DNA from: an uncultured Verrucomicrobia subdivision 3 bacterium
GTDB taxonomy: Bacteria > Verrucomicrobiota > Verrucomicrobiia > Limisphaerales > DASXHY01
Assembly (NCBI GenBank): GCA_937890005.1
Contig: CALBZA010000026.1
Coordinates: 3,841-67,840 of the forward strand
Direction of reading: 5' to 3'
DNA length: 64,000 nt
Below are positions 942 through 17,642 of this stretch, in pieces (the first letter of the stretch is position 1; every line of letters begins with the position of its first letter). The notes beneath the pieces are model-generated. The model did not search any database. It was not told the origin of the DNA and saw nothing but the letters and a program-made list of their open reading frames with translations. The position numbers and the translations under genes were made by a program.

Positions 942-3926
942 ATGTCTCATCCCGGTTTTCTGAGAAACACTCGTGACATGTCCGACATGCGCAGAAAGCC
1001 GTTTCCCGATATGCGCCCCGTCATTTCGTTCTGGAAAGACTCCCTCGCCGGGCGCGCGCTGCGCTTCACCGCGGCCATGGTCGGGCTCGTCGTTGTCATC
1101 TCCACCGCCGTGTCCTACTGGGTGGTGTTTCGGAACGCAGAGAAGGATCGCCTCGAAGCACTTGGCGAATACGCCTCCGAACGCGCCCGACGCGAGAACA
1201 TGAGTTTCAAGCTCGCCGAGGAATATCATTCCGTTCTCAAGGCCGCCTTCATCAAACGCTGGAATCAGCCCGATCCGGAAAACATGGAGGAACGTTTCGA
1301 CGCCGTTTTCGCCAAGGGCACTGACGGCGCGTGGCGCAGCCGTCGGGACCTCATTGATCCGTTGCGCGAGCCATCGACATGGATTCGAGCCGGCCGCGAA
1401 ATCACGCCGGAACTCAAGCGCATGGTCATGATCTGCCACGACCTGACCTTCCAATATTTCGATGCGTGGGCGCCACAGTTCAAAAGCCTCTACATTTCCT
1501 CCCCTTACGAATTCAACACCGGCATCGCTCCCGATCTTCCTGAATGGGTCTGGCAGATCGCACCCGATTTCGATCAAAACAACCACGTCTGGGGACTTCT
1601 CGCCAGCCGCGAACACAATCCCGACCGCCGCTCTCTCTGGACCGGCGTCTTCTACGACATCGCCGCCGGAGATACCAGCCCATCGAGCCTTTACGTCACG
1701 CTCTGCACTCCGGTTGACGTCGGCGGGCGTCACATGATCACCGCTCACCTGGACATTCAAATCTCGGAACTCCTTCAACGCGCCGTCGCTGTCGAACGTC
1801 CCGGCCTCAGTCATCTGATTTTCCGCCCGGACGGAAGAGTGATCATCGGCGGCGGCCTGATGGAACGGATCGCCCAAAGCAAAGGCGAACTGACGCTCCA
1901 GAATTCGGGAGATCCGTCGCTGCAGAGCATTTACAAACTCGCGTCTGCTCAATCGAACTTTCCCTACACGGGATACGATCCGGTCAGCGATCGGTATCTC
2001 GCCATCACGCACCTTGAACATCCCGGCTGGTTGTTTGTATCAATGGTGCCGCGCGCCGACCTTCGCGAGCAGGCGTTTCGATCGGCGCAATGGGTTCTCT
2101 GGAGCGGACTCGGTGTGCTGCTCGTTTCGCTGGCGTTGATCAGCGGAAGCTTTCGCACGCAGGTCGCCCGGCCGCTGAGCCAGCTGCTCGCCATGACCCA
2201 GCGGCTCGAAGCCGGCGAAACGGACGTGAGAATCCAGGTGAACACAACGCGCGAGGACGAGATCAGTGAACTCGCCCGTTCGTTCAACGAAATGGCGGAT
2301 CGCGTTTCCGAGCGCGATGCTGCCGTGCGTGCTTCCGAACGCCGCTGGCGTCTGCTGTTCGAACAATCGCCGTTGAGCGTCCAGTTCTTTTCGCCCGACG
2401 GCCATTCGCTCCGGGTCAACAAAGCGTGGGAACAGCTCACCGGTCTGCAACATGAAGCCATCAGCGGCTGGAATCTTCTCAAGGATGAACAGCTCAAAGC
2501 GGCGGGTTTGATGCCGCACTTCGAACGCGCGTTCAAAGGCGAGGTCGTGGCCATTCCACCCACGCTTTACGACACCGAACAGGCCCGGTTCGTGGGCGAA
2601 CACACCGGCGCCAAACTCAAATGGATCAGCGCGATTCTCTTCCCGTTGTTCGACGACGACGGGAAGCTCATCGAAGTCGTTGCCATTCACGAGGACGTCA
2701 CGGCACGGAAAGTTGCCGAGGAGGAAATCCGGAAACTGAACCAGGAGCTCGAACAGCGCGTGACGGAACGCGCCGCGGCACTGCGGGTCAGCGAGGAACG
2801 TCTGCGCATGATCCTGGAGCACACCCCCATCGCAATCGTCACGCTGGATGCCGAGACCGGACGTTTCGTGGATGCCAACGATCAGGCGCTGCTGCTGTTC
2901 GGTCTTTCACGCGAAGAGTTCCTCTCGGTCGGACCCGCCGATCTCAGTCCCGAACGTCAGCCCGATGGACGGCTTTCCAGTGAAGTGGCGATGGAAAAGA
3001 TTCGCGCCGCGAGAAACGGCGGATCGTCCGCATTCGAATGGACGCACATCAATGCCGGCGGCCAGAAGGTGCAGTGCGAAATCCGGCTCGCCCCCATGCC
3101 TTCCTCCGGACAAAACCTCGTTGTGGGCAACCTGCTCGACATCACCGCATGGAAACGCGCCGAGGAGGAATTGATGAACGCGCTGACCCGCGAGCGGGAA
3201 TTGAGCGAGCTGAAAACGAATTTCGTTTCGCTCGTCTCACACGAGTTCCGCACACCGCTCGGAGTCATCATGTCTGCCACCGATGTTCTCCAACGTTACT
3301 TCGATCGTCTGCCGGCCGAAAAACGGGCGCGGCATCTCGACATGATCTTTCGCTCAACCAGGAACCTCGCGGCGCTGATTGAAGAGGTTTTGTTGCTTGG
3401 AAAAGTTGAAGATGGCCGGATGCAGTTCACGCCAGTGCCGGTCGATCTGGAAACGTTGTGCCGGAATTTTGTCGATGAAGTCACGTCCGCCACCAATGCC
3501 TCATGCCCGATTCAATTCACGGTGCATGGATCCGTGGCGGGCGCTGTCAGCGACGAAAGTCTTCTCCGGCATACGCTGACGAACCTGCTTTCCAACGCGG
3601 TGAAATACTCCGCGCCCGGCACGCCGGTTGAGTTCAGTGTGGAACGTCAGGGCAGCGCCGCGGTGTTCACCATCCGCGATCGTGGAATTGGAATTCCAAA
3701 GGAAGATCAGGCGCGCCTGTTCACCACATTCAGCCGCGGACGAAACGTCGGAGACCGCCCCGGAACCGGGCTTGGCCTGGTCATTGTGCACCGGTGCGTC
3801 CGGTTGCATCGCGGAAAGATTCAACTCCAGAGCGAGCCGGGCACGGGCACGACGGTAATCGTGCATCTTCCCGTCTTTTCCCTGAAACCTGCGCCCGACG
3901 CTCAACTGCAATCTGCCTCGTCATGA
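942..3926 (+). CDS. membrane sensor histidine kinase (TM-HAMP-PAS-PAS-HisKA-HATPase)
   Basis: 994-aa ORF with an N-terminal TM segment (AAMVGLVVVISTAVSYWVVF), an H-box SHEFRTPLGVI, and G-boxes DRGIGI and GTGLGL. Coiled-coil/PAS-like segments lie between. The start could be 942 or the ATG at 978. Confidence 0.9.
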   Translation: MSHPGFLRNTRDMSDMRRKPFPDMRPVISFWKDSLAGRALRFTAAMVGLVVVISTAVSYWVVFRNAEKDRLEALGEYASERARRENMSFKLAEEYHSVLKAAFIKRWNQPDPENMEERFDAVFAKGTDGAWRSRRDLIDPLREPSTWIRAGREITPELKRMVMICHDLTFQYFDAWAPQFKSLYISSPYEFNTGIAPDLPEWVWQIAPDFDQNNHVWGLLASREHNPDRRSLWTGVFYDIAAGDTSPSSLYVTLCTPVDVGGRHMITAHLDIQISELLQRAVAVERPGLSHLIFRPDGRVIIGGGLMERIAQSKGELTLQNSGDPSLQSIYKLASAQSNFPYTGYDPVSDRYLAITHLEHPGWLFVSMVPRADLREQAFRSAQWVLWSGLGVLLVSLALISGSFRTQVARPLSQLLAMTQRLEAGETDVRIQVNTTREDEISELARSFNEMADRVSERDAAVRASERRWRLLFEQSPLSVQFFSPDGHSLRVNKAWEQLTGLQHEAISGWNLLKDEQLKAAGLMPHFERAFKGEVVAIPPTLYDTEQARFVGEHTGAKLKWISAILFPLFDDDGKLIEVVAIHEDVTARKVAEEEIRKLNQELEQRVTERAAALRVSEERLRMILEHTPIAIVTLDAETGRFVDANDQALLLFGLSREEFLSVGPADLSPERQPDGRLSSEVAMEKIRAARNGGSSAFEWTHINAGGQKVQCEIRLAPMPSSGQNLVVGNLLDITAWKRAEEELMNALTRERELSELKTNFVSLVSHEFRTPLGVIMSATDVLQRYFDRLPAEKRARHLDMIFRSTRNLAALIEEVLLLGKVEDGRMQFTPVPVDLETLCRNFVDEVTSATNASCPIQFTVHGSVAGAVSDESLLRHTLTNLLSNAVKYSAPGTPVEFSVERQGSAAVFTIRDRGIGIPKEDQARLFTTFSRGRNVGDRPGTGLGLVIVHRCVRLHRGKIQLQSEPGTGTTVIVHLPVFSLKPAPDAQLQSASS

Positions 3927-4561
3927 AAACTATCCTCATCATCGAAGATCAACCCGACATGCGGGAGAACATCGCCACCATTCTCGAAATGGAAAACTAC
4001 GCCGTGCTCACAGCCAATGACGGCGAACAGGGCCTCGCCATGGCGCGCGAGGAAAAGCCGGATCTGGTTCTTTGCGATGTGATGATGCCGAAGATGGATG
4101 GCCACGAAGTGCTCCGGCAGCTCCGGGAGGATCGCACGATAGCGGGGACGCCGTTCATTTTCCTGACGGCGAAGGGTGAGCGTCGCGATCAGCGCGCTGG
4201 AATGAATCTCGGCGCCGATGATTACCTGACAAAACCGGTGACAGCCACGGATCTGCTTGCGGCTGTTTCCGCAAGACTGGATCGCGAGCAGAAGCGACCG
4301 GCGGGCGAATTTCATCCTGACTTCAGCTCCCCCGCTCCGCTCGAGCGGACGTTGAATCTCACACCGCGCGAAGCGGAAGTGCTGCTCTGGGTGGCACAGG
4401 GCAAGAGCAATCCGGAAATCAGCGCGATCCTCGGCGCTGCAGAGAACACGATCAAAAAGCATCTCCAGAACATTTTCGAGAAGATGGGCGTGGACAATCG
4501 AAACGCCGCCAGTCTCCGGGCGATGGAGATTCTTTCCCAAACCGCTAAACTCAGCGCATGA
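3923..4561 (+). CDS. response regulator, NarL/LuxR family (REC + LuxR HTH)
   Basis: [16 protein letters not shown]...[13 protein letters not shown] forms the REC domain. The C-terminal [45 protein letters not shown] is a LuxR-type HTH. Its ATG overlaps the kinase stop (ATGA). Confidence 0.9.
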
Positions 4562-4698
4562 AATCGCTGACTGAACATCTCTGGTTCGAAACGCCCAATC
4601 GAAGGGATTACATCAACATCACCGACACCGTTGCGGCACTGGTTCGCAAGAGCGGCGTGCAGGAAGGCCTGTGTCTGGTGAACGCAATGCAAAACTAG
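4558..4698 (+). pseudogene. yjbQ: 5' fragment of a UPF0047/YjbQ-family gene, truncated by an insertion
   Basis: Encodes [44 protein letters not shown] followed by QN and a stop. The sequence continues seamlessly as [15 protein letters not shown]... at 15889. ATGA-coupled to the upstream response regulator. Confidence 0.8.
4682..4698. other. attL junction (host GAACGCA | ATGCA | element AAACTAG)
   Basis: Comparison with the attR junction at 15884-15900 shows a shared ATGCA. The arms differ immediately on either side. Confidence 0.65.
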
Positions 4699-4740
4699 CT
4701 ACTACCGGTTCACATTGCCGACTGGAGGGGATTTGCTGAT

Positions 4741-5016
4741 ATGAAGCCCGTGCTCAAAATTTCACTGTTCGGAGCAACGGCTCGCTGGAACACAATGCGC
4801 GGAAAGTGGATTTGCTCTGACAAAACGCTTCAGCGCCTGCTGAATCAAACAGTTCCAGATTTCAGCGTTCACACCCGATTCATGACAGACGGGGTCCAAG
4901 GAGAGGCAAAACGAGGGTTGATGAACTCGCCCTTGTGGGAGTCCGTAACCATTCTCAAGGAAGTTCCGGAAACCGCAGACAAACCTTCCGACGATCCCAA
5001 CGAACTCGACGGGTAA
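4741..5016 (+). CDS. hypothetical protein (first gene inside the element)
   Basis: 91-aa ORF with an ATG start. No recognisable motif. Confidence 0.4.
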   Translation: MKPVLKISLFGATARWNTMRGKWICSDKTLQRLLNQTVPDFSVHTRFMTDGVQGEAKRGLMNSPLWESVTILKEVPETADKPSDDPNELDG

Positions 5017-5083
5017 AATATCCTTGTCAGCGCGAACGTAAGAGTTCACAAGAGGTGCGGATTCAAATTGGGGAAAGGGAAAT

Positions 5084-5281
5084 ATGCCAAAGGAAACAGT
5101 TACGCGGAGCGCGACCATTCAAGTTGAGAAAAAGGAGATCACAGTCCAACTCGTTGAAAACCCTCGGGGAAGCTGTGTCCGATTCATTGAGAGCAATGCT
5201 GCCGGACGACGCAATTACCGGATGGTTCCGGCAAGTGGATTGTCGGAACTGACAAAAGTGCTTCAGCAGCTCTCAGCGTAG
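5084..5281 (+). CDS. PUR-alpha-like (DUF3276-like) single-repeat nucleic-acid-binding protein
   Basis: 65 aa. The segment IQVEKKEITVQLVENPRGSCVRFIESNAAGRRNYRMVPASGLSELTKVL matches the PUR repeat pattern (...f.fdlkeNpRG.flrI.E.....r..i.iP..gl.ef...l). A GGGAAAGGGAAAT SD-like stretch lies upstream. Confidence 0.5.
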   Translation: MPKETVTRSATIQVEKKEITVQLVENPRGSCVRFIESNAAGRRNYRMVPASGLSELTKVLQQLSA

Positions 5282-5318
5282 CATCACAAACGAGATTCCT
5301 CGTTTTCACATCTATCAC

Positions 5319-5366
5319 AAGGGTAGGCACCCGCGCCTTGCCCTTCCGTTCGCCCTGCCTACCCTT
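5319..5366 (+). terminator. strong hairpin after the PUR-like gene (11-bp stem AAGGGTAGGCA/TGCCTACCCTT, 26-nt loop, then TTTG)
   Basis: The inverted repeat was read directly from the sequence. The long C-rich loop is atypical for an intrinsic terminator. Confidence 0.4.
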
Positions 5367-5502
5367 TTGAATAAGTAGCGGCGCAAGTGTGCGGGAAGCC
5401 TGTTGCAGGATTACACGCTGCCGTTTGCGGGGGATACACATCACAAGGAGTTGATCCGGCGCTAACCGGAAAAAACATATTGCTGTTTCCTCCAAGATTC
5501 CT

Positions 5503-5751
5503 TTGAATCGGCCCGGTAGGAAAGGACGCGAATTGATCCAAGACGCAAAACGAAAACGGCTCGCAAAGGAGTGGCTAATCTTCATTGTGTCAGTTCTTCC
5601 CGGCACCCTGTTTGTCATCGTCGCAGCCATAGCTGAAGACGGCGCGCCGTTCTGGGCATGGACCTTAATTCCGTTTGGGCCTTACGCCCTGATCATGATT
5701 CTTCGCTCAATTGTCTGGTCTGTGAAAGTTCTGCGGTCGCGACAACAATGA
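5503..5751 (+). CDS. small membrane protein (2 predicted TM helices)
   Basis: WLIFIVSVLPGTLFVIVAAIA and WTLIPFGPYALIMILRSIVW are hydrophobic spans. The start is uncertain: TTG at 5503 or the in-frame TTG at 5533. Its stop overlaps the next ATG (ATGA). Confidence 0.45.
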   Translation: MNRPGRKGRELIQDAKRKRLAKEWLIFIVSVLPGTLFVIVAAIAEDGAPFWAWTLIPFGPYALIMILRSIVWSVKVLRSRQQ

Positions 5752-6320
5752 AGAAAGTTAAAATTCAAGATGATGCGGGACTTGCGTACTGCGTTGAGCA
5801 TGCAAGCGCCTTGATACAAGCAATTCACGATTACGCGGGACGTGATTTCACGAAGAAGTGGAAGCTTCGTTTTCCGCGGGGTTATGTTCGAACAGCACAA
5901 GAACAAAGACAACGGTTATCGTTTATTCCAGATGGCCCTTTGAAAGACAACATTGCTTATACGCTGATTCTTGCTGATACGACTCACTGGCTTCTGTGCA
6001 GAACTGATGTCACCCACACAATACAGGAACAGCTTATCAAACTTCACCTATTTCTCCTTGGCGCACTGGTTGAAAGCATTACGAAAGTCTATTTGTCTGG
6101 CAAATGTGGGAAGAGCTATAAAATCCGAACGGAATATCTAGTCACTCACCACCACATCACTCCCAAATTGAAAATCGATTTGGACTGGCTCTGGGATATG
6201 CGGAACAACATGCATTTGTTCCTCGTGCCCAATTCGGAGTATAGCTGTCCCGATTACACGGTCGCCAACTATAGTCGCGGAGTGGCGGCATTTCGTGAGC
6301 TAGTCAATGGGCTAGCCTGA
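5748..6320 (+). CDS. hypothetical 190-aa protein, AT-richer, translationally coupled to the membrane protein
   Basis: MKKVKIQDDAGLAYCVEH..., with ATG at 5748 inside track ORF 5658..6320. Contains DMRNNMHLF, which is HEPN-like but one residue short of Rx4-6H. Confidence 0.6.
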   Translation: MKKVKIQDDAGLAYCVEHASALIQAIHDYAGRDFTKKWKLRFPRGYVRTAQEQRQRLSFIPDGPLKDNIAYTLILADTTHWLLCRTDVTHTIQEQLIKLHLFLLGALVESITKVYLSGKCGKSYKIRTEYLVTHHHITPKLKIDLDWLWDMRNNMHLFLVPNSEYSCPDYTVANYSRGVAAFRELVNGLA

Positions 6321-6680
6321 GCATTCCATTTCCAAGCTGCGAAAGCGCTTCGGAAAAGGGTTCGCCCGACGTTCACAACTACAACATTCCTTGAGCTGCC
6401 TGGGCTAAAACACGCGTTTGTCTGCGCGGATCGGCCGTTCTAGCGTTTTCCCATTGGAAGTGCAGAGACTCGACTTGCACTAACAAACACACCGAACACA
6501 AGTGCTGCGTCACGGTCGTCCGCCTCCTCCTTGCCGCATTTTTCTGCCGCAGCTAGATAATGTCTGAAAGCGGGCAGCGGGCCTGATCCCCCGTTGAAGA
6601 TTCCCGGCTGGCGGTGGTTGTGTTTTTCATTATTGCCGCTTCTGCCGCTGGCCGGAATCGCTCGCGAACAAAATAATGAA

Positions 6681-7694
6681 ATGAACTACACGATTGAGCG
6701 GGACGAATCCGATTACCTCGACAGACAGTATGAGCTGGGGGCCCAAAAATTGGAGGACGAAGAAGCAGACACACGCTGCAGGTTCCAAGAAGTTGCCGTT
6801 TTCGATCCGAGCGAGGTTTCCAAGGCACTGCTGGAAAGCGAATGGGCTGACCTGCAAGGTCGTGAATCGGACGGAAGCCTTGAACAGCCCTCAAAAATAT
6901 CTAGCCCCTACATCAACGCGCCGCTGCCCCTCTTGGGAATCATGCACGGCGAGGACGTTCACCGCAGGAAAGCGTTTGAAAGGGAAGACCCACGTGATCG
7001 CAAAGCCTTCTGCAACTTCTTTCGTAGCTATGCGATTTGTTACTATGCACAGAACTTGTATCGCAAAACAGCAAAGGATGAAATGAACGGTCTGCGCTAT
7101 CCCGAGAAGACACCAACCGGCTTTAACAGGAACAATCCAAGGCATCGAGCGCTGGGCGCTGCGATGTTCGCGATGAATCGCGGCGGCGGCAGTGTTAAGC
7201 GAATCTTCGGACATTGGAACACGGCACGAGAATTCATGAAGGAGCGTCAGCTTGCCGAATGTGAGCAGGCACGTTTTCAGATTTCATTGAAGCTGCTTGG
7301 GCCGGAATACGATTTTTTGAGCCTGCGCGATCTTCGTGTGCTGATGGCTGTAAACTCGTGCATGGGTGAGGACGGATTCGGCACGATAAGCTGGCGGGTT
7401 CTATCGTGGCGCGCCGTGGGTGCAACGAACGAAGCGGGGCTAGAGTTGCTGGGCGTTAAGCCGCTTGGAAAGCATCAAGTGGAGAATGCCCTTGAGCGGC
7501 TGCAAAAGCATGGACTGATCCACCGCTTGGAAGTCAGGAAAGGGGTGGACAGTCGTGTTACCTTCGTTGCAAAAGGCACCATGTCGGAAAACGTGTTTCA
7601 CACGCTCGTTGCCGACAGAGTCTCCAAGGGCAAAGCTCGGCGTGGCGTGCTTCGGAATGGCAAACTCATTGTTCTTGGACGACTGGCGGAGTGA
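6681..7694 (+). CDS. hypothetical protein with a C-terminal winged-helix-like segment (candidate replication/regulatory protein)
   Basis: The track ORF 6594..7694 starts at a TTG; the first ATG is at 6681 (MNYTIERD...). The C-terminal LSLRDLRVLMAV...GKHQVENALERLQKHGLIHRLEVRKG looks like a wHTH. Confidence 0.5.
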   Translation: MNYTIERDESDYLDRQYELGAQKLEDEEADTRCRFQEVAVFDPSEVSKALLESEWADLQGRESDGSLEQPSKISSPYINAPLPLLGIMHGEDVHRRKAFEREDPRDRKAFCNFFRSYAICYYAQNLYRKTAKDEMNGLRYPEKTPTGFNRNNPRHRALGAAMFAMNRGGGSVKRIFGHWNTAREFMKERQLAECEQARFQISLKLLGPEYDFLSLRDLRVLMAVNSCMGEDGFGTISWRVLSWRAVGATNEAGLELLGVKPLGKHQVENALERLQKHGLIHRLEVRKGVDSRVTFVAKGTMSENVFHTLVADRVSKGKARRGVLRNGKLIVLGRLAE

Positions 7695-7720
7695 GGAACA
7701 TCCAACGCCCTGTTTCACGT

Positions 7721-7752
7721 GGTGCCTACCTGCGGTGCCTACCTGCGGTGCC
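7721..7752. repeat. 13-bp tandem repeat GGTGCCTACCTGC x2.5
   Basis: Read directly from the sequence. Lies in the intergenic region after the wHTH gene. Confidence 0.85.
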
Positions 7753-7756
7753 ATAT

Positions 7757-7780
7757 AATAAAAGCTTCAATAAAAGCTTC
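7757..7780. repeat. 12-bp tandem repeat AATAAAAGCTTC x2
   Basis: Read directly from the sequence. AT-rich, and adjacent to the 13-bp repeats. Confidence 0.85.
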
Positions 7781-7784
7781 CATA

Positions 7785-7815
7785 GCGCCCGCCGCTTTTT
7801 TGGCGGCGCGGGCGC
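7785..7815. other. GC-rich imperfect hairpin (GCGCCCGCCGC-T6G-GCGGCGCGGGCGC)
   Basis: Inverted repeat with a 2-nt bulge; the T-run sits in the loop. Confidence 0.5.
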
Positions 7816-7885
7816 TGTATGCGAAGAAGGAGAGAGAGATGTGTGTTTCCTCAGAAAAGCAGAAAACGCCAATTTGCTTAGGTGA

Positions 7886-8929
7886 ATGGAACGGAAGGAG
7901 GGAGAAGAACGAAAACACCAAATGAAAAATCTCCTTGCAGCCAAAACCAGAAAGAGCAAATTCCGCCTCATGACAAAGGAGAAAGCCAATTTGCAGCCAA
8001 ATGGAGAAGATGCTTCGTCTGAAGATGTGTTGCTTCCCACTCCCGAAGAACAACTGCAACGTCAGGAGCGCGAAAAGCGCGATGCGTTTGTGAGGCAGAT
8101 TGAGGGCTTTTTAGAGAATGATCCCGAGTTGCGTTCAATCGTGTTCCACCGGATTAAGGAAAATGCCCGTAAAAGGATTGAAACCCTCCGTAAAGGGGAA
8201 GCGATTGAAGAGATTCTCCAGATGCAAAAGCGCGAAAAGGACAACGCTAACGCGTTAGCGGTGCTTTCTCAAAGAATTCGGACAGGGACGCTCCAGGAAA
8301 AAACAAAAGCCCTCCAATCGCTCGTGGGCGAGATTGCGGACCGACAACAGAACATCGACAAAAACGAACGTGCCGCGGCGAACTCTATGAACTTGGCCGT
8401 GACGTATGCCAAAGAAATTGGAGACAGATTGCAGTTCGCAAAGGATCATTTGATTCCCGAAGGACAATACGAAAAGTGGGTTGAAGAGACATTTGACGGC
8501 ATTTTCAAACCTTCCACCGCTCGCCTCTATCGACAAATCGCCGCACCTCAGAATTGGAAAAAGATCGCAAAAAAGGTCAACACACCCCCGGGGTTGAGCC
8601 TGCGAGCGGCCCGCGCACTTCTCACGGACAAACCCGAAAAGCAGAGCAAATCCGAAATAGAAAAGACGCGCGCAAAGTTGGAAAAGAAAGCTTTGGAAAA
8701 GTTCCGCGAACTCATAGCTGGATGGCCCCCAAAGATGCTCGATGAAGTGACATTCTCCAACGCATGGTTTTGGGGAAGGCTCGACAAGGAGGCGCAAAAG
8801 CTCTGCAACCCCAGCGAAATGGCGAGGGAGTCGGCGAGGAACTTCCGTCGGTTGCTCAATGCTCAACGCCAAATGTTGAACGCCGGACAGTTTTCGCCAG
8901 CGGACCTATTGGAATCCGATTTTCATTAA
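7886..8929 (+). CDS. DUF3102-like coiled-coil protein
   Basis: 347 aa and K/E-rich. KDHLIPEGQYEKWVEETFDGIFKPSTARLYRQIA resembles the DUF3102 core (HGeW..Wle..f..s.rtA..ym). An alternative start is at 7922. Confidence 0.5.
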   Translation: MERKEGEERKHQMKNLLAAKTRKSKFRLMTKEKANLQPNGEDASSEDVLLPTPEEQLQRQEREKRDAFVRQIEGFLENDPELRSIVFHRIKENARKRIETLRKGEAIEEILQMQKREKDNANALAVLSQRIRTGTLQEKTKALQSLVGEIADRQQNIDKNERAAANSMNLAVTYAKEIGDRLQFAKDHLIPEGQYEKWVEETFDGIFKPSTARLYRQIAAPQNWKKIAKKVNTPPGLSLRAARALLTDKPEKQSKSEIEKTRAKLEKKALEKFRELIAGWPPKMLDEVTFSNAWFWGRLDKEAQKLCNPSEMARESARNFRRLLNAQRQMLNAGQFSPADLLESDFH

Positions 8930-8934
8930 ATACC

Positions 8935-9699
8935 ATGAGTTCAGAATCGAAGCCCACGGACCTACTCGGTCTCGCCCCTTACGGTGAAGCAGTAAAGTCT
9001 GCCACCGACAAGACTTTCGAAACGGCTCAGGCATTTCTCTACGCTTTGTGTCGCCCCGCAGCTGAAGAAGCGGGCTTGCTTTTCCGGGACCAGATACGCT
9101 TTTGGAGAGCGAAGAACCTAGCTCGGATCGCTGAGAAGGCTCAGGCATTCACAACTGTCACGCCTGAAGGTCTGCAATTGCAGGCTCCGCCAAGAGTTGT
9201 TCACGAGATCATCGAGCACGGTTCATGGTGCGAGCAGGAGGAGCTCCAAAGCATGTGGGCTGGACTCTTGGCCAGCTCCTGCACCAAAGATGGCGTAGAT
9301 GATTCGAGCTTACCATTCATAGACATATTAAAACGCATTACGTCAGCGGAGGCTAAACTTATAGAACATGTCTGCAAAAACTCGATCGTGGATGCCAGTC
9401 CTTCGGGTGTGCTTCGAGGCAGGTCTGTAGATTTATCCCTTGAGCAGATTCAGGCGATTACTGGATGGAAGGACAAGACTCTCGCGCAGGCTTGTATCGA
9501 ACACCTAGTTTCCCTCGGGTTGTTGAAGGAGCAACCTGCCATTTTCTTCAACGGAACACCGAAAGTTCCCTGGATTCAACCAGAACCGTTGACTCTCCAT
9601 TTCTATGTCCGTTGCTGTGGTTCCAGAATAGCCACAAAACAGTTTTTTGACGAACTAGCAAGTAAGACCGGAAAGACCGCTTTTTCGGAGGCGGAGTGA
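8935..9699 (+). CDS. Abi-alpha family (DUF4393/PF14337-like) protein
   Basis: The ATG at 8935 lies within track ORF 8764..9699. Matching segments are MSSESKPTDLLGLAPYGEAVKSATDKT..., AEEAGLLFRDQIRFWRAKNLARIAEKA, and EELQSMWAGLLASS...FIDILKRITSAEAKLIEHV. Together they fit the family pattern as I recall it. Confidence 0.6.
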   Translation: MSSESKPTDLLGLAPYGEAVKSATDKTFETAQAFLYALCRPAAEEAGLLFRDQIRFWRAKNLARIAEKAQAFTTVTPEGLQLQAPPRVVHEIIEHGSWCEQEELQSMWAGLLASSCTKDGVDDSSLPFIDILKRITSAEAKLIEHVCKNSIVDASPSGVLRGRSVDLSLEQIQAITGWKDKTLAQACIEHLVSLGLLKEQPAIFFNGTPKVPWIQPEPLTLHFYVRCCGSRIATKQFFDELASKTGKTAFSEAE

Positions 9700-9705
9700 G
9701 TAGTC

Positions 9706-9873
9706 ATGGCAGAGAAGAATTACATTACGTATCGCAAACACCTCGAATATTGTGCGCTAATATCTGCGTTTGGAACAAACAGTTCAGCCTCCCTGATGCA
9801 AACGCGTGTCGCGCGGGAAAACGTGCAGGAAGGGCGGGCAAAGGGGTACTGCAGGGCGGAAAACAAGCATTGA
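9706..9873 (+). CDS. possible 55-aa ORF downstream of Abi-alpha (below the track cut-off)
   Basis: My own translation gives MAEKNYITYRKHLEYCALISAFGTNSSASLMQTRVARENVQEGRAKGYCRAENKH. No motif found, so coding status is uncertain. Confidence 0.2.
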   Translation: MAEKNYITYRKHLEYCALISAFGTNSSASLMQTRVARENVQEGRAKGYCRAENKH

Positions 9874-9923
9874 TCACACGTTAAGGACTACGTGTAGGAG
9901 GCATCTGGCTGGATTAGATTTTA

Positions 9924-9947
9924 GATGCGTTTTTGGATGCGTTTTTG
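9924..9947. repeat. 12-bp tandem repeat GATGCGTTTTTG x2 upstream of the small serine recombinase
   Basis: Read directly from the sequence. Confidence 0.85.
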
Positions 9948-10062
9948 GAACACCCTGAACACGCTCCCCTTTGGTCTCTACAGAACACCTCACGGCAGCA
10001 GGACAAAACGACCGTTTACTTCACGACTGCCTGCCAGATACTCACTCTCGTAAAATGCGAGC

Positions 10063-10731
10063 ATGAAACATTGCGTCGCGTATTTCAGAGTATCAACAAA
10101 GCAGCAGGGAATGGACGGCCTCGGAATGGAGGCACAGCGAACAGCGGTCGCACAGTTCCTAGCATCACGGAACCTCCACTTGCTTGCGGAGTTCGCAGAG
10201 GTGGAAACAGGGAAGCGGAAGGATCGTCCAGAACTCACAAAAGCAATCGCACTGTGCAGGAAAGCAAAGGCAACGCTTGTGATCGCAAAGCTGGACCGGC
10301 TGGCACGCAATGCAGCGTTCGTGCTGAATCTCCGGGATTCCGGCGTGGACTTTGTTGCGTGCGACATGCCGGACGCAAACAAGCTCACAATCGGCATCAT
10401 GGCACTAGTGGCGGAACAGGAGCGGGATTGGATCAGCGAACGCACAAAGGCAGGACTGGCAGCGGCAAAGCGCAGGGGCACCCAGCTTGGCAATCCCCGC
10501 ATCGCAACAGCTCGCACGCTAGCAATCGCTGCAACGAAGGAGAAAACACGGGCATTCACCGACAGGCTTGCGCCGGTGATCGCAGAGATTACGGCTGCGG
10601 GTGTTACGACTCTCAAAGGAATCGCACAGTGCCTCAATGCGCGTGGATTCAAAACACCACAGGGCGCAGCATTCACAAGGCAAGCGGTTGCGAAGCAGAT
10701 GAGACGACTTCGCAAAGAACGTCAGGCATAG
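10063..10731 (+). CDS. small serine recombinase (resolvase/invertase type)
   Basis: The N-terminus MKHCVAYFRVSTKQQGMDGLGMEAQR contains the catalytic Ser motif. Also has LVIAKLDRLARN and ERDWISERTKAGL. Confidence 0.9.
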   Translation: MKHCVAYFRVSTKQQGMDGLGMEAQRTAVAQFLASRNLHLLAEFAEVETGKRKDRPELTKAIALCRKAKATLVIAKLDRLARNAAFVLNLRDSGVDFVACDMPDANKLTIGIMALVAEQERDWISERTKAGLAAAKRRGTQLGNPRIATARTLAIAATKEKTRAFTDRLAPVIAEITAAGVTTLKGIAQCLNARGFKTPQGAAFTRQAVAKQMRRLRKERQA

Positions 10732-10779
10732 CTTCTAAACCAGTTGCCGCCACTCGTTCGTCTCGCGCATTGTCGCAAC

Positions 10780-11202
10780 ATGGACGAGACGGCGGAAGAG
10801 ACGCAGGACAGGGCCGACATTCGGAAACAGGGACGCAGGGCGCAGAAGCGCAAGAACATCACACTCTCCAAGCAGTTTTCTCCCCGATTCTGGGAACAGT
10901 CCGATTCTCGCGTTGCGGTGGTCCGCGCAATTCGCCGCCGGTATGAACTTTTGAAGCAGCACGCAGGCGGCGAAGAATCCTATCAGCGCGATCTACTCTG
11001 CCAGCGCACTGCTTTCATTTCCGTGATCCTCGAAACGCAGGAGGTTGAGGCGGCTGAGGGTGGCTCACTGGACATGAGCGTCTATGTGCAGGCCATTAAC
11101 TGTTTATCGGGCCTGCTCCGCTCCTTGGGGCTGGAACGCCGGATCAGGAACGTGACAGACCTCAGCGCCTACCTTGAGAAGAAACGGAGCGCAGCGCAGT
11201 GA
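10780..11202 (+). CDS. putative terminase small subunit (assigned by position only)
   Basis: ~140-aa basic protein immediately upstream of TerL and overlapping its start. No diagnostic motif. Confidence 0.35.
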   Translation: MDETAEETQDRADIRKQGRRAQKRKNITLSKQFSPRFWEQSDSRVAVVRAIRRRYELLKQHAGGEESYQRDLLCQRTAFISVILETQEVEAAEGGSLDMSVYVQAINCLSGLLRSLGLERRIRNVTDLSAYLEKKRSAAQ

Positions 11203-12698
11203 ACATCCTCGATGCAATCAGAGACGAGAACTTGTTCCGGCCGTTTCTCGGTGATGATTTGAGCACGTGGAAGTATTGGGGAATTGCATTGCGTGCGCTT
11301 TACGGGATCCCAATCAAATCACTTAAAGGACGAGCCTTCGTGCAGCAATGCACAGGCAGGGATGCCAGTGAGCTTCCAGCAGAAGGATTTCAATCCGCGC
11401 TGTTCCTCGTAGGCAGACGGAGTGGCAAATCTCGTATCGCGGCAGTGATCGGCGGTTTTGAAGCGCTGTTCGGTGGACATGAGAAGCGGCTTGCGAAGGG
11501 TGAAACCGGAATCATCCCTATCATCAGCCCTTCAAAATTCCAGAGCGGAATCGTTTGGAAATACATCCGCGGTCTTTTTGATGTTCCACTGCTGAAACAG
11601 GAAGTGGTCAACGAATCCGAGCGTGATCAAACGATTACGCTTCAGAACGGAATCGAAATCCGAATTCTCACAGGCGATTGGCGCACTGTGCGCGGGCCGT
11701 CGGTCGTTTGCGCAATTATCGACGAGGTATGTTTTTTCGGTGTCACAGAAGAATCGAAGGTGCGCAGCGACACTGAACTGGTTCGCGCTTTGCGCCCGGC
11801 ATTGCTGACGACGAAGGGGAAGTTGATTGGCATTTCCTCGAAATATGCGCAGAAGGGGTGGGCCTATGGCACTTGGAAGAAGCAGCACGGAGCGAACAAG
11901 GGAGATGCGCAGTTCAATCCGAAATGGCGCACACTCGTTTGGGACACCGATTCCCGGACGATGAATCCCACGCTGTCGGAAGCAGAGATCGCAGCGGCAT
12001 ACGAAGAAGACCCAGCGGCAGCTCGAAGTGAATTCGGCGGCTGCTGGCGCGAAGACATTGAAGAATTTGTTCCCCGATCCATGATCGAATCGCTTGTTGC
12101 TGCAAACAGGCGAGAACTGCTTCCGCGTTCACTTTCGTATTCCGCAGGCGTGGATTTGAGCGGTGGACGCGGCGACAGCGCCGCATTGTGCATCGTTCAC
12201 AAGGAAGAGCGGCGAGTTGTGCAGGATTTCATAAAGGAGTGGCACGCACCCTTCAACCCGTATTCCGTAGTTTCGGAGATTGCGAGTGAGTTGAAGCGTT
12301 GGAATCTCCGTTCAGTGCGCGGGGACAACTACGCCGGCGACTGGCCTGTTCAGGCGTTTCGCGAACACGGAATACGTTACCTTCCAGCTGATCGCAGCAA
12401 ATCAGAACTCTATCGCGAAATGCTGCCTGTGTTGTGCGGCGGCAAAGCATCAATCGAACTGCTCGACAATGCCACACTGGTAAATCAGCTCGCATCGCTG
12501 GAGCGCAAAACACGCAGCGGGGGCAATGATGTGATTGACCACCCCCGAGGCGGAAAGGACGACGTTGCGAACGCCCTAGCTGTTGCGTGCAGTGCAGCAT
12601 CGCAAAAGCGGCTCCGAGCGGGTGGACTGTGGCGGATTGATCTGAACGCTTCCGAAGAATTTCCAAGCCGTCTTGCAATTCTCCAACAAACCCAATGA
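11199..12698 (+). CDS. terL: terminase large subunit
   Basis: Walker A-like VGRRSGKSRIAA and Walker B-like VCAIIDEVCFF. Nuclease-half motifs GVDLSGGRGDSAALCIVH and VIDHPRGGKDDVANALA. GTG start overlapping the upstream stop. Confidence 0.75.
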   Translation: MNILDAIRDENLFRPFLGDDLSTWKYWGIALRALYGIPIKSLKGRAFVQQCTGRDASELPAEGFQSALFLVGRRSGKSRIAAVIGGFEALFGGHEKRLAKGETGIIPIISPSKFQSGIVWKYIRGLFDVPLLKQEVVNESERDQTITLQNGIEIRILTGDWRTVRGPSVVCAIIDEVCFFGVTEESKVRSDTELVRALRPALLTTKGKLIGISSKYAQKGWAYGTWKKQHGANKGDAQFNPKWRTLVWDTDSRTMNPTLSEAEIAAAYEEDPAAARSEFGGCWREDIEEFVPRSMIESLVAANRRELLPRSLSYSAGVDLSGGRGDSAALCIVHKEERRVVQDFIKEWHAPFNPYSVVSEIASELKRWNLRSVRGDNYAGDWPVQAFREHGIRYLPADRSKSELYREMLPVLCGGKASIELLDNATLVNQLASLERKTRSGGNDVIDHPRGGKDDVANALAVACSAASQKRLRAGGLWRIDLNASEEFPSRLAILQQTQ

Positions 12699-12704
12699 AC
12701 GATT

Positions 12705-13175
12705 ATGAATGACAATCCTGTGATGATGAAGGTCCGAGCGTTCGAGGAACGGCACGGTTCCGAGAAGTATTCTGACGGCGCTGCGTGGTTTTACGCGGAC
12801 GGTGCGATGCGTGACATGAATCCGATCGGCATATTGATGGAGCCGCCTGACTCCGGCACCGACGAGGGGGAATACAAAATGGCCCTGCACAAACTCAAGT
12901 TCGCGCAGCTCAAACTCCAGACCGCCGTTTCGGAGTTCGACCAGCTGAACACGCGGCTGGCACACACGATTCCGATGGACCCGGATGCGGATTTGGCAGA
13001 GCTAAAGCGTCTCGCAAAAGTGGTAGAGAGCCGGAAGAAGCTTGTGACGGAGGCAGAGGAAGGCGTTGCTAATACCCGCTGGGGTCGCCGTCGAGCCGAA
13101 CTGAGGCGAGCAGACGAGGAACAGCGTCAGCGCATGGCTGACTTCAACGAGAAGCGCCGTTCCATCCGAGTGTAA
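12705..13175 (+). CDS. hypothetical coiled-coil protein
   Basis: 156-aa ORF, same strand, tightly packed after TerL. Confidence 0.5.
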   Translation: MNDNPVMMKVRAFEERHGSEKYSDGAAWFYADGAMRDMNPIGILMEPPDSGTDEGEYKMALHKLKFAQLKLQTAVSEFDQLNTRLAHTIPMDPDADLAELKRLAKVVESRKKLVTEAEEGVANTRWGRRRAELRRADEEQRQRMADFNEKRRSIRV

Positions 13176-13191
13176 CGCAATCAAATCACTT

Positions 13192-13485
13192 ATGAATACG
13201 ACTAGAGTTCAACTGCCGGACGGACGACTGCTCACCATCGAGGGTGGCACCGCAGAAACCACCGCAGCATTGCTGAGAAACCACTATCTCACGCCAGCTG
13301 CAACACAGGAACGTGAAGCCCTTGCGACTAACGAGGAACCAATGACGATGCCGAGCCTCCAAGATGCGCTTCAAAACCAGCAGCATCAACGCATTCGCAC
13401 CGTGGTGCAGAACCTTCCGCGTCCGGTTGTGAATGAAACAGACGAGCAACCGCTGGAAATGCCCCGGATGAAGTTCTCTGAGTGA
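13192..13485 (+). CDS. hypothetical protein
   Basis: 97-aa ORF with an ATG start. Confidence 0.45.
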   Translation: MNTTRVQLPDGRLLTIEGGTAETTAALLRNHYLTPAATQEREALATNEEPMTMPSLQDALQNQQHQRIRTVVQNLPRPVVNETDEQPLEMPRMKFSE

Positions 13486-13778
13486 TCTTCAGTTCCGGCG
13501 TCAATGCGATTGCCGTATTGCACGCCGTAGCTATTTTCAGAGTGCCAGCTTGTTTCTGTTTGGAGCTGGTGAGTTACCGACAGCCGTCCCTTTGACTTTC
13601 CACAATGGGACGGCGCTTTTTCCAGCTTCCTCCGTGTCCGTTTCTGCGTTCCGGCCCCAAATGCGCTGTCATGAGCGGGATCTTACTGCTTAGGTCCAAG
13701 GTGGGGCATTGGCAGGTCCAGGCAGGGTGTTTACACGTTGCCGGGGAACAGCGCACACAAGCGGAGGATTGTTCGCTG

Positions 13779-14258
13779 ATGTTCTTAAAAACCATCAATA
13801 CCGTTGCTCACGCGATGCTCATGGATGCACAAATGCCAGTGGTGCTTACAGGCACCGCAGACGGCAATGAAGCCCCTGCATCGAAGGTAAAGCAAATGAA
13901 CAAGAACACTGCGCCGAAGTTCCAAACCCCACACGAAAAAGCCAAATCAGCTCCGCGTCCCAAGCAGCCGGTGAAAGCAAGAGCGAAGAAGTCGGCGAAA
14001 TCCATCAAACCGCGGAAGGGCAAGTTGGGGCTGTTGCTCGGTCACTCGGTTGTCTCCGTGATCCGAGCAATGGGCAAGGCAGGCTGGACATACGAAACAG
14101 CCCGTGCTGCACTGGACAAGGCCGGGATTGAAGCTGCAACGCATACCGTGAAAGTTGGGCTGAAGCGGGGACGCGACGGACAGAAACGCATTGCGCCTCT
14201 CACGGAAAAACAGCTTCAGAGCCTCAAGGTGAAACCGACAACAGCACAGAAGCAATGA
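13779..14258 (+). CDS. lysine-rich basic protein, ATGA-coupled to the large serine recombinase
   Basis: The ATG at 13779 is preceded by GGAGGA. Contains a K-rich tract KAKSAPRPKQPVKARAKKSAKSIKPRKGK. Its stop overlaps the integrase ATG. The track ORF begins earlier, at 13605. Confidence 0.45.
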   Translation: MFLKTINTVAHAMLMDAQMPVVLTGTADGNEAPASKVKQMNKNTAPKFQTPHEKAKSAPRPKQPVKARAKKSAKSIKPRKGKLGLLLGHSVVSVIRAMGKAGWTYETARAALDKAGIEAATHTVKVGLKRGRDGQKRIAPLTEKQLQSLKVKPTTAQKQ

Positions 14259-15937
14259 GCAGGGGAAAACAGAAAATACTCCGTTTCGCCGCGCTGCGCC
14301 GTGTCTCTACGGAGCAGCAAGAGAAGGTTGGTGAATCGCTCCAGACACAGACAAAGGACATCGCATCAACTGTGAAAGACTTGGGTGGTGTCGTTGTCGA
14401 GTGGTATGGAGGGCAGGAACACGCAACACCGGGCCACGAGAAGCGGGAAGTCGAGCGATTGCTCCACGATGCACAGCGAAACCGGTTTGATGCCTTGATC
14501 GTGGCGCATCCGGACAGGTGGAGCCGCGATAATTCTTCCAGCCGCGCAGGACTGGAACTGTTCCGCGAGCACGGCGTGAGGTTCTTTGCTGGTGCAACGG
14601 AATACGACCTGTTCAATCCGGATCACGAGCTGTTCCTCGGGATTTCAGCCGTCGTCGGACAATTCCAAGCGCGCCAGCAAATGCTCAAGTCGATGAAAAG
14701 CCGCATCGAACGGGCAAAGGGAGGAGTTCCCACAGGGGGACGCCTCCCGTTTGGACGTGTTTTCGTGCGCAGCAAGGATAGGCGAACGGGCCATTGGGAA
14801 ATTGATCCAGCGAAGCATGAGATGGTGAGGGACTGCGCCAAGCGTTATCTGAAGGGTGAATCGCTCGTTGATCTAGCTGCCGAATATAACGTGAATGCGT
14901 CGAACCTTTGGAAGGTGCTTACGAAGGTGAGCGGCTCCAAATGGAAAGTTGAATTCAGCTCCAAGGTGCTCAATCTGCACGAGATTGTAGAACTTGATGT
15001 GCCTCCTTTGCTAGACAAGGAGACAATCGAGGCAATTTGCAGCAAAGCAGAAGCAAATCGCACCTACACGCACGGGCATATCAAACATCGGTATCTGTTC
15101 TCCCGGATGATTTTTTGCGCTCATTGCGGCTATGCGATGATGGGACAGACGAACCAGAATACAAAGCGCTACTACAGACACGCGCACACTGAACGAGATC
15201 GCGTCTGCAACGGCGCACCAAGAAAGGGATGGATCCCGGCTGATGCGATTGAGGACAACGTGATGCGCCACCTGTTTGAAACCTTCGGCAATCCGGTCGC
15301 AGTGCAGCGAGCAATCGAGGAAGCGACTCCAAACAGCGACAGGATTCAGCAAGCGGTCAAACGCAAGGGGTTCGTGGAGCAGGAACTGGAGACGATTGAG
15401 AATTCCCGGCAGCGAATTCTCAGATTGATTGTGAAGGGGACGATTGAAGAAGCAAACGCAGAGACGGAGCTTAAGAAGCTCAAAAACCGCGAACAGAAGC
15501 TAACCGACGAGCGAACACGGCTCGAAGATGAGCTTGCGCATGTTCCATCGCGGGAAGTGCTAAAATCGGCCTCAAGGAAGATCGCCGGAAAGTTCCTTCA
15601 ATACACCAGTGCCAAAACTTGGGCAAAAACTCGGCAGGCGAACGAAGCGTTCGATGCGATGAGCTTTGAGGAGAAGCGTGCGCTCTGTGAATCTGTGTTC
15701 GCCGGAAAAACAACCGACGGACGGCGCACGGGCATCTCCATAGCGTGGGACAGCACTGGAAAGAAGTGGCGCTATCGAATCGAAGGATTGTTGATAGATG
15801 CAGAAGGCCCGATCAGTGAGGGCGCATTTGTTTTCGGGGCACCGCAGGGTCAGAAAGCTCTAGTGGGTAAATTTGCATCGCAAACGCCATGCACATCACG
15901 GCAAGCGTTTACATCAATGACGCCGAGGACGGATTAA
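14255..15937 (+). CDS. large serine recombinase (integrase)
   Basis: 560 aa. The resolvase domain has [11 protein letters not shown] and [13 protein letters not shown]. It is followed by a recombinase domain, a zinc-ribbon-like CAHCGYAM...C segment and a coiled coil. The last 14 codons read across attR into yjbQ DNA in another frame. Confidence 0.9.
15884..15900. other. attR junction (element AAACGCC | ATGCA | host CATCACG)
   Basis: See attL. The single a/c difference just left of ATGCA fits host versus element arms. Confidence 0.65.
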
Positions 15938-16179
15938 TTCACGATTACGACGTCTGGCTGGAGAAACTCGCGCCCCACGCGCCGACGTCGCAGTATCATC
16001 ACAATCGCACCGGCGAGGACAATGCCGACGCGCACATGAAACGCCAGATCATGGGACGGGAAGTCGTCGTCGCGATCACCAAAGGAAAGCTCGACCTCGG
16101 ACCCTGGGAACAGATCTTCTACGGCGAATTCGACGGCCGCCGCCGAAAACGTGTTCTCGTGAAAATCATTGGCGAATAG
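15889..16179 (+). pseudogene. yjbQ: yjbQ 3' portion, copy A (96-codon ORF beginning at the internal Met)
   Basis: [96 protein letters not shown] is a typical UPF0047 C-terminal core. Confidence 0.8.
15900..16178 (+). repeat. direct repeat copy A (279 bp, 3 mismatches versus 17337..17615)
   Basis: Base-by-base comparison at a constant offset of 1437 bp. The differences are at 15903, at 15930 (gac/gat), and at the stop third base (TAG/TAA), which lies just outside the repeat. Confidence 0.9.
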
Positions 16180-16225
16180 CACTGTGTAATTTGCGGCGAG
16201 TTGCCGAATTCATCAGCCCGCGACC

Positions 16226-16242
16226 GCGACTCTGCGAGTCGC
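16226..16242 (+). other. hairpin GCGACTC-TGC-GAGTCGC downstream of copy A
   Basis: Read directly from the sequence. No T-run follows. Confidence 0.4.
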
Positions 16243-16304
16243 AGCGGGGTGGATCGCCGAATTGAATCTGAACAACCTCAACCTTTGAAAGCGAACGGTG
16301 CGCC

Positions 16305-17616: not shown

Positions 17617-17642
17617 CTCGCTCCCGGAAAACGAACGTTGCT

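Follow-up and report, generated by a model that had tools for sequence, protein, structure and literature searches.

In a 64,000-nucleotide stretch of contig CALBZA010000026.1 from an uncultured Verrucomicrobia subdivision 3 bacterium of soil or compost (hereafter, the window, to whose numbering all positions refer), the yjbQ gene is split by an 11,202-bp island. The island is very probably an integrative element that was inserted in yjbQ by its own large serine recombinase (LSR), with strand exchange at the AA of the Asn42 codon. The sequences show that the two halves of the gene fit together exactly, the same strain has uninterrupted alleles, the recombinase has a serine-integrase fold, the reconstructed attP is palindromic, and relatives of the element sit at the same codon. 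The features on which the argument turns are as follows.

3794 to 4561, plus strand: NarL/LuxR-type response regulator of the host flank (Pfam Response_reg and GerE), whose stop codon overlaps the yjbQ start (ATGA).
4558 to 4682, plus strand: 5' fragment of the host yjbQ (B arm), codons 1 to 41 and the AA of Asn42, defined by sequence, Pfam, and junction comparison.
4683 to 15884 (equivalently 4681 to 15882), plus strand: integrated element of 11,202 bp, exactly the segment that contigs of sequencing runs X2 and X4 skip.
14255 to 15937, plus strand: LSR, 560 amino acids (aa) as integrated, recognized by Pfam, an invariant Ser18, and the fold of its AlphaFold (AF2) model.
15885 to 16179, plus strand: 3' fragment of yjbQ, copy A, from the B' arm to the stop codon, which completes the 5' fragment in runs X2 and X4.
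17337 to 17616, plus strand: 3' fragment of yjbQ, copy B, which completes the gene in a contig of run X1.

A first-pass annotation, made from the sequence alone, had described the left piece as 44 codons at 4558-4689 that end in LCLVNAM, and the right piece as an open reading frame (ORF) at 15889-16179. The sequence bears out both: the left frame continues with Q and a stop, and the right one encodes 96 aa. Joined at the shared Met, the halves give, as proposed, a 139-aa YjbQ-like protein that matches Pfam UPF0047 (PF01894) over the whole profile (positions 1-117 of 117, 128.8 bits, E = 1.5e-37). The 3' piece alone spans profile positions 25-117, and positions 1-24 come from the 5' piece; the annotation's own counterargument, that the fragments might not align to adjacent parts of one UPF0047 model, is therefore removed. 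In a scan with one genome per species, 80 loci had an intact yjbQ to which the joined protein aligns over residues 1-139 with no gap, the best match being 94% identical, in a Verrucomicrobiae metagenome-assembled genome. We conclude from the profile match and the gapless alignment that the two pieces are adjacent parts of one gene. The window holds yjbQ as one 5' piece and two 3' pieces (copies A and B), and no further yjbQ gene lies within it. When the flanks were compared with those 80 loci, yjbQ alone aligned and no neighboring gene was in common, so these genomes confirm the intact gene and not the local empty site. A scan of positions 1-22000 found no tRNA, so the island is not tRNA-linked.

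The local empty site was found in public sequencing runs. Those holding the left flank were compost and unlabelled metagenomes, and their contigs were mapped onto positions 3000-19000. A 4,863-bp contig from run X1 follows the window from 3000 to 4691 (4 differences), continues with CATCAC, and then follows 17337-18093, giving the order NarL-type regulator, intact yjbQ, downstream flank; an uninterrupted yjbQ directly after the regulator is what the first reading of the sequence had suggested looking for. Contigs of runs X2 and X4 follow the left flank to 4680 and resume at 15883, with exactly 11,202 bp missing. The skip leaves an intact yjbQ, and five bases (AACGC) could belong to either side. 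Flank identity of the empty-site contigs is 99.7-99.8%, and none of the four runs has any depth on the island. Contigs of run X4 also span 16042-16418 and 16554-17394, which means that a segment downstream of copy A, carrying a DUF2971 gene, is kept in this run. One strain thus occurs in three natural allelic states: without insertion, with the DUF2971 segment only, and with both the DUF2971 segment and the island, as in the window. The insertion is precise: an empty site exists, the length skipped is 11,202 bp to the base, and the target is duplicated no further than the center. Runs X1, X2, and X4 contradict the possibility that close relatives have no empty-site allele. Separately, high-depth, short-sided joints appeared within the response-regulator gene (window 3607-4202 and 4101-4214) in most runs; these probably reflect other genomes whose contigs have conserved receiver-domain words in common with the window, rather than true deletions.

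An assembly chimera, with the island joined to yjbQ by mis-assembly, could be imagined, as the window is probably metagenome-derived and the comparison was only with low-depth short-read contigs. Such an error is extremely unlikely given that the right junction is matched at 100% identity by an independently assembled ENA contig, L171, that the two yjbQ fragments are exactly complementary, and that no fewer than 25 unrelated loci from metagenomes have the same LSR-yjbQ junction. L171 matches 15673-18082 without a difference, from the recombinase end through the right junction, copy A, the DUF2971 gene, and copy B into the flank, so the arrangement cannot be put down to an artifact of a single assembly. 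The island was found at 100% identity in other samples.

By every feature testable in silico, the 560-aa protein is a large serine recombinase. It contains a Resolvase domain (PF00239; residues 16-155, E = 2.3e-14) and a Zn_ribbon_recom domain (PF13408; residues 281-340, E = 9e-10); Pfam PF07508 (Recombinase) was not detected at an E value of 0.01. The catalytic motif R16-V17-S18-T19-E20-x-Q22 and the zinc-ribbon residues C288, C291, and C318 are invariant in 25 LSR homologues. The AlphaFold model, built on homologues, has long helices at 361-448 and matches full-length, att-bound serine integrases, namely, 9dxd, 9dxh, Bxb1 (9iu2), PhiC31 (9tep), and the LI integrase (4kis), with a best E value of 4e-17. 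An NCBIfam scan gave weak matches to XisF and CcrB. The gene had been described as abutting the right junction; its location (14255-15937) agrees, but the ORF also reads across the junction.

The closest homologues of this LSR, in loci L081, L082, and L083, are 70, 68, and 62% identical, and in each an opposite-strand yjbQ 5' fragment directly follows the LSR gene. A metagenome scan with the recombinase alignment returned 80 further loci; together with L081-L083, 57 loci have a readable flank, and the reversed yjbQ 5' fragment follows the LSR in at least 25 of them. In locus L101, the LSR strand carries a yjbQ 3' fragment, which makes this locus the one further, weak case of the window orientation. 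LSR-mediated attP × attB insertion, as originally proposed, is thus upheld by the empty alleles, the serine-integrase fold, and the presence of about half of the relatives at the same yjbQ codon. The crossover point is another matter, for which the following features are needed.

4681 to 4682, plus strand: central dinucleotide AA at attL, the sole dinucleotide common to both junctions across the family and the center of the dyad.
15883 to 15884, plus strand: central dinucleotide AA at attR, placed by the family junction comparison and the dyad center.
4683 to 4704, plus strand: P' arm of attP, distal half-site CGCAATGCAAAACTAGCTACTA, which mirrors the P arm at 16 of 22 positions and fits the family arm consensus.
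15862 to 15882, plus strand: P arm of attP, proximal half-site TAGTGGGTAAATTTGCATCGCA up to the AA, within the last LSR codons.
attP, AA-centered rebuild: TAGTGGGTAAATTTGCATCGCAAACGCAATGCAAAACTAGCTACTA plus flanks.
attB core, AA-centered: GTGAACGCCATGCAC.

The first-pass annotation took ATGCA, which is identical at both junctions, as the recombination core and held that the flanks diverge on both sides of it. The left junction reads GAACGC-A-ATGCA and the right one AAACGC-C-ATGCA, so that AACGC is also common, immediately to the left and with one mismatch between, and ATGCA is not the sole candidate. Since the junctions share AACGC-N-ATGCA, the window alone cannot place the exchange. If the same LSR had exchanged strands inside ATGCA, attB would be GTGAACGCA-ATGCA-CATCACGG and attP CAAACGCC-ATGCA-AAACTAGC, and the empty allele of run X1, AACGCAATGCAC, fits a B arm carrying GCA. 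This placement is, in our judgment, distinctly unlikely. In a comparison aligned on yjbQ codon 42, both junctions were readable in five relatives (L085, L094, L107, L132, and L151). The bases common to both junctions are C-AA in L151, AACGC in L094, GTGCAA in L107, and AATGC in L132; intersecting those of L151 and L094 leaves AA alone, and AA is the only dinucleotide common to both junctions across the readable relatives. Furthermore, the yjbQ 5' fragment of L081-L083 ends in ...GTCAA, followed by unrelated element sequence without ATGCA, and that of L151 likewise stops at AA without ATGCA.

Symmetry points to the same dinucleotide. Around AA, attP has 16 of 22 complementary positions, against 5.5 ± 2.1 in the null, in which at least 16 occurred at 0 of 20,000 random positions (<5e-5); attB has 12 of 22 at AA, and at least 12 occurs at a frequency of 0.004 in the null. 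By contrast, an attP dyad centered inside ATGCA reaches 4 to 6 of 22, which is background. The empty allele of run X4, in which the DUF2971 module is present as it is in the window, reads AACGCCATGCAC, as expected if the crossover lies to the left of the differing base: exchange at AA predicts this allele because the B' arm then derives from the right junction. Because the X1 allele reads GCA, the support that the X4 allele lends to AA is only suggestive. The repeated occurrence of ATGCA is explained by the half-site motif, which is present in the element arms as well as in the gene arm and has the consensus TGCATxGCG near the center.

The five relatives and the dyad symmetry therefore place the core at the AA of the Asn42 codon and not at ATGCA, a shift of 6 to 9 bp. 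Both sites can be rebuilt much as the first reading had claimed, except that its versions were each one base off relative to the AA-centered ones. attB is best written ...GTG-AA-CGCCATGCACATCACGG and attP ...GCATCGCA-AA-CGCAATGCAAAACTAGC. The rebuilt attP is a 46-bp imperfect palindrome, TAGTGGGTAAATTTGCATCGCA-AA-CGCAATGCAAAACTAGCTACTA, and attB in yjbQ is TGTGTCTGGTG-AA-CGCCATGCACA.

We infer the binding, cleavage, and rotation steps from the established serine-integrase mechanism. Recombinase dimers would bind to the attP of the circular element and to the attB within yjbQ, all four strands would be cut at the central AA with 2-nucleotide (nt) staggers, and one half would rotate by 180 degrees before the ends are religated, producing attL at 4681 and attR at 15883. 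The non-palindromic AA would fix the orientation, with AA on the recombinase-coding strand making the gene point into the 3' half of yjbQ. The island went into a chromosome in which the separate DUF2971 insertion, flanked by the duplicated yjbQ 3' end, was already present, and an excised circle would read ...GCATCGCA-AA-CGCAATGCAAAAC... at its joined ends.

In serine integrases such as Bxb1 and PhiC31, the non-palindromic central dinucleotide alone sets the polarity of recombination. On the LSR strand, the proximal arm is homologous in all members of the family (window, TAGTGGGTAAATTTGCATCGCA; L081, TAGTAACTAAACATGCTAACTA). The window has AA as the two bases after this arm, the 24 relatives whose AA is intact have TT, and the LSR gene points into the 3' half of yjbQ in the window and into the 5' half in the TT relatives. 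The opposite orientations with AA and TT are what the polarity rule predicts; natural sequences thus show insertion orientation switching together with the central dinucleotide. Compared with the work on Bxb1 and PhiC31, the window and its relatives offer a natural comparison across diverged elements and no experiment.

Several observations weigh against the LSR-mediated insertion at AA or limit it. The empty-site evidence consists of low-depth Logan contigs (3-8x). No contig with a circular (attP) junction and no free form was found in the island-bearing runs, whose depth is only 0.1-3x, and the viral contig collection contains no exact match to the attP pattern; the search for attP-spanning sequences that had been suggested for this element therefore gave no circular junction in either source. 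The crossover is ambiguous within the window, with AACGC and ATGCA each present at both junctions. The attB alleles GCA and GCC both occur in nature, and AA rests on the family comparison and symmetry. Finally, no directionality factor was identified. Beyond these points, no terminal overlaps marking circles were found among family contigs of 10 to 13 kb, and a protein scan of the viral contig collection found no relatives of the LSR.

attP overlaps the last LSR codons, so integration changes the C-terminal tail of the enzyme. The last 17 codons lie past the crossover, in host yjbQ sequence read in another frame; the integrated form has 560 aa and the circular form would have 563, with the last ∼20 residues differing. 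attP likewise overlaps the LSR end in L081 (8027-8030), L094 (11623-11626), and other loci, and in 16 of 25 relatives the stop codon (TGA or TAA) combines the second T of TT with the two bases at which the host arm begins. The circular form would add 10 to 33 residues past the crossover in the five elements with both ends known, and 17 to 33 in the three whose integrated ORF stops at the crossover. Judging from these sequences, the gain or loss of the LSR stop codon upon recombination might serve the element as an inbuilt switch between integrating and excising.

Other loci show further arrangements around yjbQ. A full-length yjbQ copy lies inside each of the elements L085 (2428-2847) and L104 (8976-9392) and may compensate for the split host gene. 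The marine relatives L164-L169 have the same core (small recombinase, large terminase [TerL], LSR) and do not adjoin yjbQ; in L164 (9071-11346), the LSR is followed by an opposite-strand fragment of an SU10-type major capsid gene, and this element may have a different target, possibly inside a prophage. In L004 (8697-8987) and L025 (8784-8927), a partial yjbQ copy lies a few hundred bases from an intact yjbQ, with junctions near CACATC, not AA, and a small helix-turn-helix (HTH)-like ORF in between; these may be traces of a second kind of element that targets the same conserved part of yjbQ.

Downstream of copy A, the window contains a second insertion; neither it nor copy B figures in the first-pass annotation.

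16179 to 17336, plus strand: separately acquired 1,158-bp segment, present in run X4 without the island and absent in run X1.
16305 to 17336, plus strand: DUF2971/PDC-S31 gene, a PADLOC defense candidate (PDC-S31 E = 4.3e-18; Pfam DUF2971 borderline).

The G+C content is 0.475 in this segment, 0.532 in the island, and 0.584 in both flanks. Copy B (17337-17616) repeats 15900-16179 directly, over 280 bp with 3 mismatches (99% identity), and the segment 16179-17336 was assembled independently in L171-L173. The island and this segment might be taken for one composite 12.6-kb element that arrived in a single insertion: the run X1 contig lacks both together (4691 is joined to 17337), a distant DUF2971 relative (27% identity) lies inside the related LSR element L106, and L174 has a 50%-identical DUF2971 homologue between two yjbQ sequences. 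A composite is very unlikely, however, as run X4 contigs cross copy A, DUF2971, and copy B while island depth is zero and a contig skips only 11,202 bp. In addition, no att-like arm is present at the copy B junction, which is 18 nt past AA; the DUF2971 insertion was therefore not made by the LSR family. Run X4 shows that the DUF2971 module predates the island and is independent of it. Two origins fit the module, the insertion of a circle carrying the yjbQ 3' end (as at icd) and homology-facilitated illegitimate recombination.

In L174, the DUF2971 homologue (1948-2985) is flanked by what looks like an intact yjbQ start on the minus strand (1-207) and by a yjbQ-like stretch on the plus strand (2973-3086); the association of DUF2971 with yjbQ therefore recurs. 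A 9-mer, GCATCGCAA, found in the P arm and upstream of copy B, was considered as a relic att arm and dismissed as chance, since its 4 occurrences in the window compare with an expectation of 1.8, and 11 of 100 shuffles gave at least as many. A GC-rich, hairpin-like repeat lies ∼45 nt after each yjbQ stop (16222-16246 and 17638-17664). It gives high-depth false joints (16246 to 17638) in 7 of 8 runs, with loose ends leading elsewhere, and is probably a dispersed element of this genome, similar to a repetitive extragenic palindrome (REP).

Besides the LSR, the island carries the following.

4741 to 8929: ORFs with no assigned function, two of them shared only with L170.
8764 to 9699, plus strand: Abi_alpha protein, cargo and PADLOC candidate PDC-S47 (PF14337 E = 1.6e-22; PDC-S47 E = 3e-11), whose true start may lie later than 8764.
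10063 to 10731, plus strand: small serine recombinase of 222 aa with Resolvase and HTH_62 domains (Pfam E = 1.1e-28 and 7.6e-10).
10744 to 11202, plus strand: small conserved protein directly upstream of TerL, overlapping the TerL start.
11199 to 12698, plus strand: large terminase TerL of 499 aa, with ATPase and nuclease domains.
12705 to 13175, plus strand: conserved 156-aa protein downstream of TerL, with homologues in 10 family loci and a nonsignificant HNH hint (E = 0.12).
13605 to 14258, plus strand: 217-aa basic protein from the ORF list, whose stop overlaps the LSR start.

The island has ∼13 genes in all, and three small proteins are encoded in 12705-14258. An ORF at 9933-10946 was rejected as an out-of-frame artifact, with a low-complexity translation and out-of-frame similarity to relatives; the real gene is 10063-10731. 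The small serine recombinase is kept in relatives at the same position, upstream of the terminase module. The protein at 10744-11202 has homologues, 46-56% identical and in the same position, in L083, L094, L151, L114, and L090; profile searches gave no family match, and it is a possible small terminase. Likewise, the protein at 13605-14258 had no family match in profile searches and is a candidate directionality factor by position only.

Sequence and modeled structure identify the 499-aa protein as a genuine large terminase. Pfam misses it, and PHROGs match it to the large-terminase family phrog_2 (E = 1e-16). The Walker A motif GRRSGKS (G72-R-R-x-G-K77) and E176 are invariant, D175 is nearly so (at least 90%), and the nuclease acidic residues D319, D376, D454, and D455 are invariant. 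The AF2 model (pLDDT 88) has as best Foldseek matches the HK97, T4, Sf6, and D6E large terminases, with E values down to 3e-18, and also matches P74-26 TerL; the matches span both domains. A protein scan of the viral contig collection found no TerL relatives. Pfam, PHROGs, and NCBIfam detected no capsid, portal, tail, lysis, or replication families among the island proteins, about seven of which match nothing.

Many loci share a core order of small serine recombinase, small protein, HK97-like TerL, ∼160-aa protein, and LSR. The left-hand cargo is unrelated between loci and often defense-like, including a TIR protein and another Abi_alpha protein. Elements of the family measure 9.3 to 11.2 kb (9,257 to 10,946 bp for the five complete relatives with both ends readable), and their hosts are Verrucomicrobiota, Planctomycetota, and other uncultured groups. 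The island is not an intact temperate prophage: at 11.2 kb and ∼13 genes, with TerL as the sole phage-like gene, it falls short of a typical prophage of >30 kb.

Tentatively, and at somewhat less than an even chance, we propose that the island is a phage satellite that packages its own DNA, via its own terminase, in the capsids of a helper phage. A decayed, immobile prophage remnant, which entered by its recombinase and later lost its structural genes, would also have a terminase with no detectable capsid, portal, or tail genes, and the circular form was not seen. Decay is nevertheless unlikely. All five complete relatives fall within a narrow size range (9.3 to 10.9 kb) and have att arms that are palindromic, many loci keep the same core gene order, and the LSR, TerL, and both att arms are intact in the window; moreover, near-identical chromosomes lack the island, and other samples contain it at 100% identity. 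We favor a satellite over decay because decay of prophages, being random, is not expected to give a uniform family of small elements with intact ends. Against a satellite stand the lack of evidence for a helper, a replication gene, or a packaging site; the fact that capsid absence is a profile-search negative on very divergent proteins; and relatives L081, L085, and L132, which have no terminase. More doubtful still is the broader proposal that the satellite represents an undescribed, widespread family of 9- to 11-kb capsid-less satellites of Verrucomicrobiota, Planctomycetota, and other uncultured phyla, with an HK97-like TerL, defense genes, a single dinucleotide target in the universally conserved LVNAMH motif of yjbQ, and an LSR stop that recombination makes or removes.

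These elements provide a natural serine integrase whose attB, attP, attL, and attR are readable to the base, and dozens of diverged relatives at the same conserved 40-bp site form a series for studying att-site recognition and the evolution of the central dinucleotide. The LSR family may also supply new DNA integration tools. It is the family-level picture that is useful here: a natural att series, orientation that follows the dinucleotide, and attP within the integrase gene. The family brings to light small elements that carry a terminase, in soil and water phyla that have been little studied, and these elements may constitute a new type of phage satellite. No report of yjbQ or UPF0047 being targeted by a serine recombinase turned up in literature searches, and the Asn42 codon of yjbQ seems to be unreported as an LSR target. 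Searches for satellites with TerL and an LSR returned nothing relevant, and a terminase-bearing, capsid-less element family in uncultured phyla seems undescribed.

The event in the window is itself a textbook, ordinary serine-integrase insertion into a conserved ORF. Gene-splitting prophages and excisable elements with serine integrases include SPbeta (SprA) in spsM, skin (SpoIVCA) in sigK, Listeria A118-type phages in comK, the Anabaena fdxN element (XisF), Bxb1 in groEL1, and PhiC31. Like these elements, the island has an LSR with an N-terminal domain, a recombinase domain, and a zinc ribbon into which a coiled coil is inserted; an attP that is short, palindromic, and adjacent to the recombinase gene; a precise empty site; and an insertion in a conserved ORF at a 2-bp non-palindromic center. 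Unlike them, it is only 11 kb long and has a terminase with no virion genes detected, the split yjbQ is not restored, and there is no evidence of developmentally programmed excision.

The comparison with phage satellites, namely, phage-inducible chromosomal islands (PICIs), capsid-forming PICIs, P4-like satellites, PICI-like elements (PLE), and phage-inducible chromosomal minimalist islands (PICMI), is similarly mixed. The shared features are a length of ∼10 kb, an integrase and a packaging gene of their own, variable defense-like cargo, and a narrow range of family sizes. However, classical PICIs encode a small terminase instead of TerL, and capsid-forming PICIs carry TerL together with capsid and portal genes, whereas the island has TerL without detectable capsid genes; neither a primase or replication module nor an AlpA-type regulator was recognized in it. 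Another difference lies in the hosts (Verrucomicrobiota, Planctomycetota, and other uncultured groups), and for the island dependence on a helper is putative.

For the DUF2971 module only, the closest parallel is icd of E. coli, whose 3' end is duplicated by e14 and phage 21. In both cases the target is left intact with one 3' end, and a second is displaced beyond the insert. In contrast to icd, the DUF2971 repeats are 99% identical and the insert is 1.16 kb with no recombinase. The attP within the LSR gene recalls integration-dependent immunity in mycobacteriophages, in which attP lies inside the repressor gene and integration alters the C terminus of the protein (PMC3694055). Here too, attP is in the 3' end of a gene, and the integrated and excised forms have different C-terminal tails, but the gene is that of the recombinase itself and not a repressor, and the enzyme is of the serine and not the tyrosine type.

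As for the landing site, yjbQ is listed as an insertion hotspot for defense islands in Vibrio cholerae (bioRxiv 10.1101/2024.07.25.605194). There, as in the window, the same gene family receives mobile elements with defense cargo; the phylum differs, and the passage on yjbQ names the site without giving a recombinase type or a junction. yjbQ thus looks like a general landing pad, and our findings mark it as a recurrent one for defense-carrying elements well beyond Vibrio.

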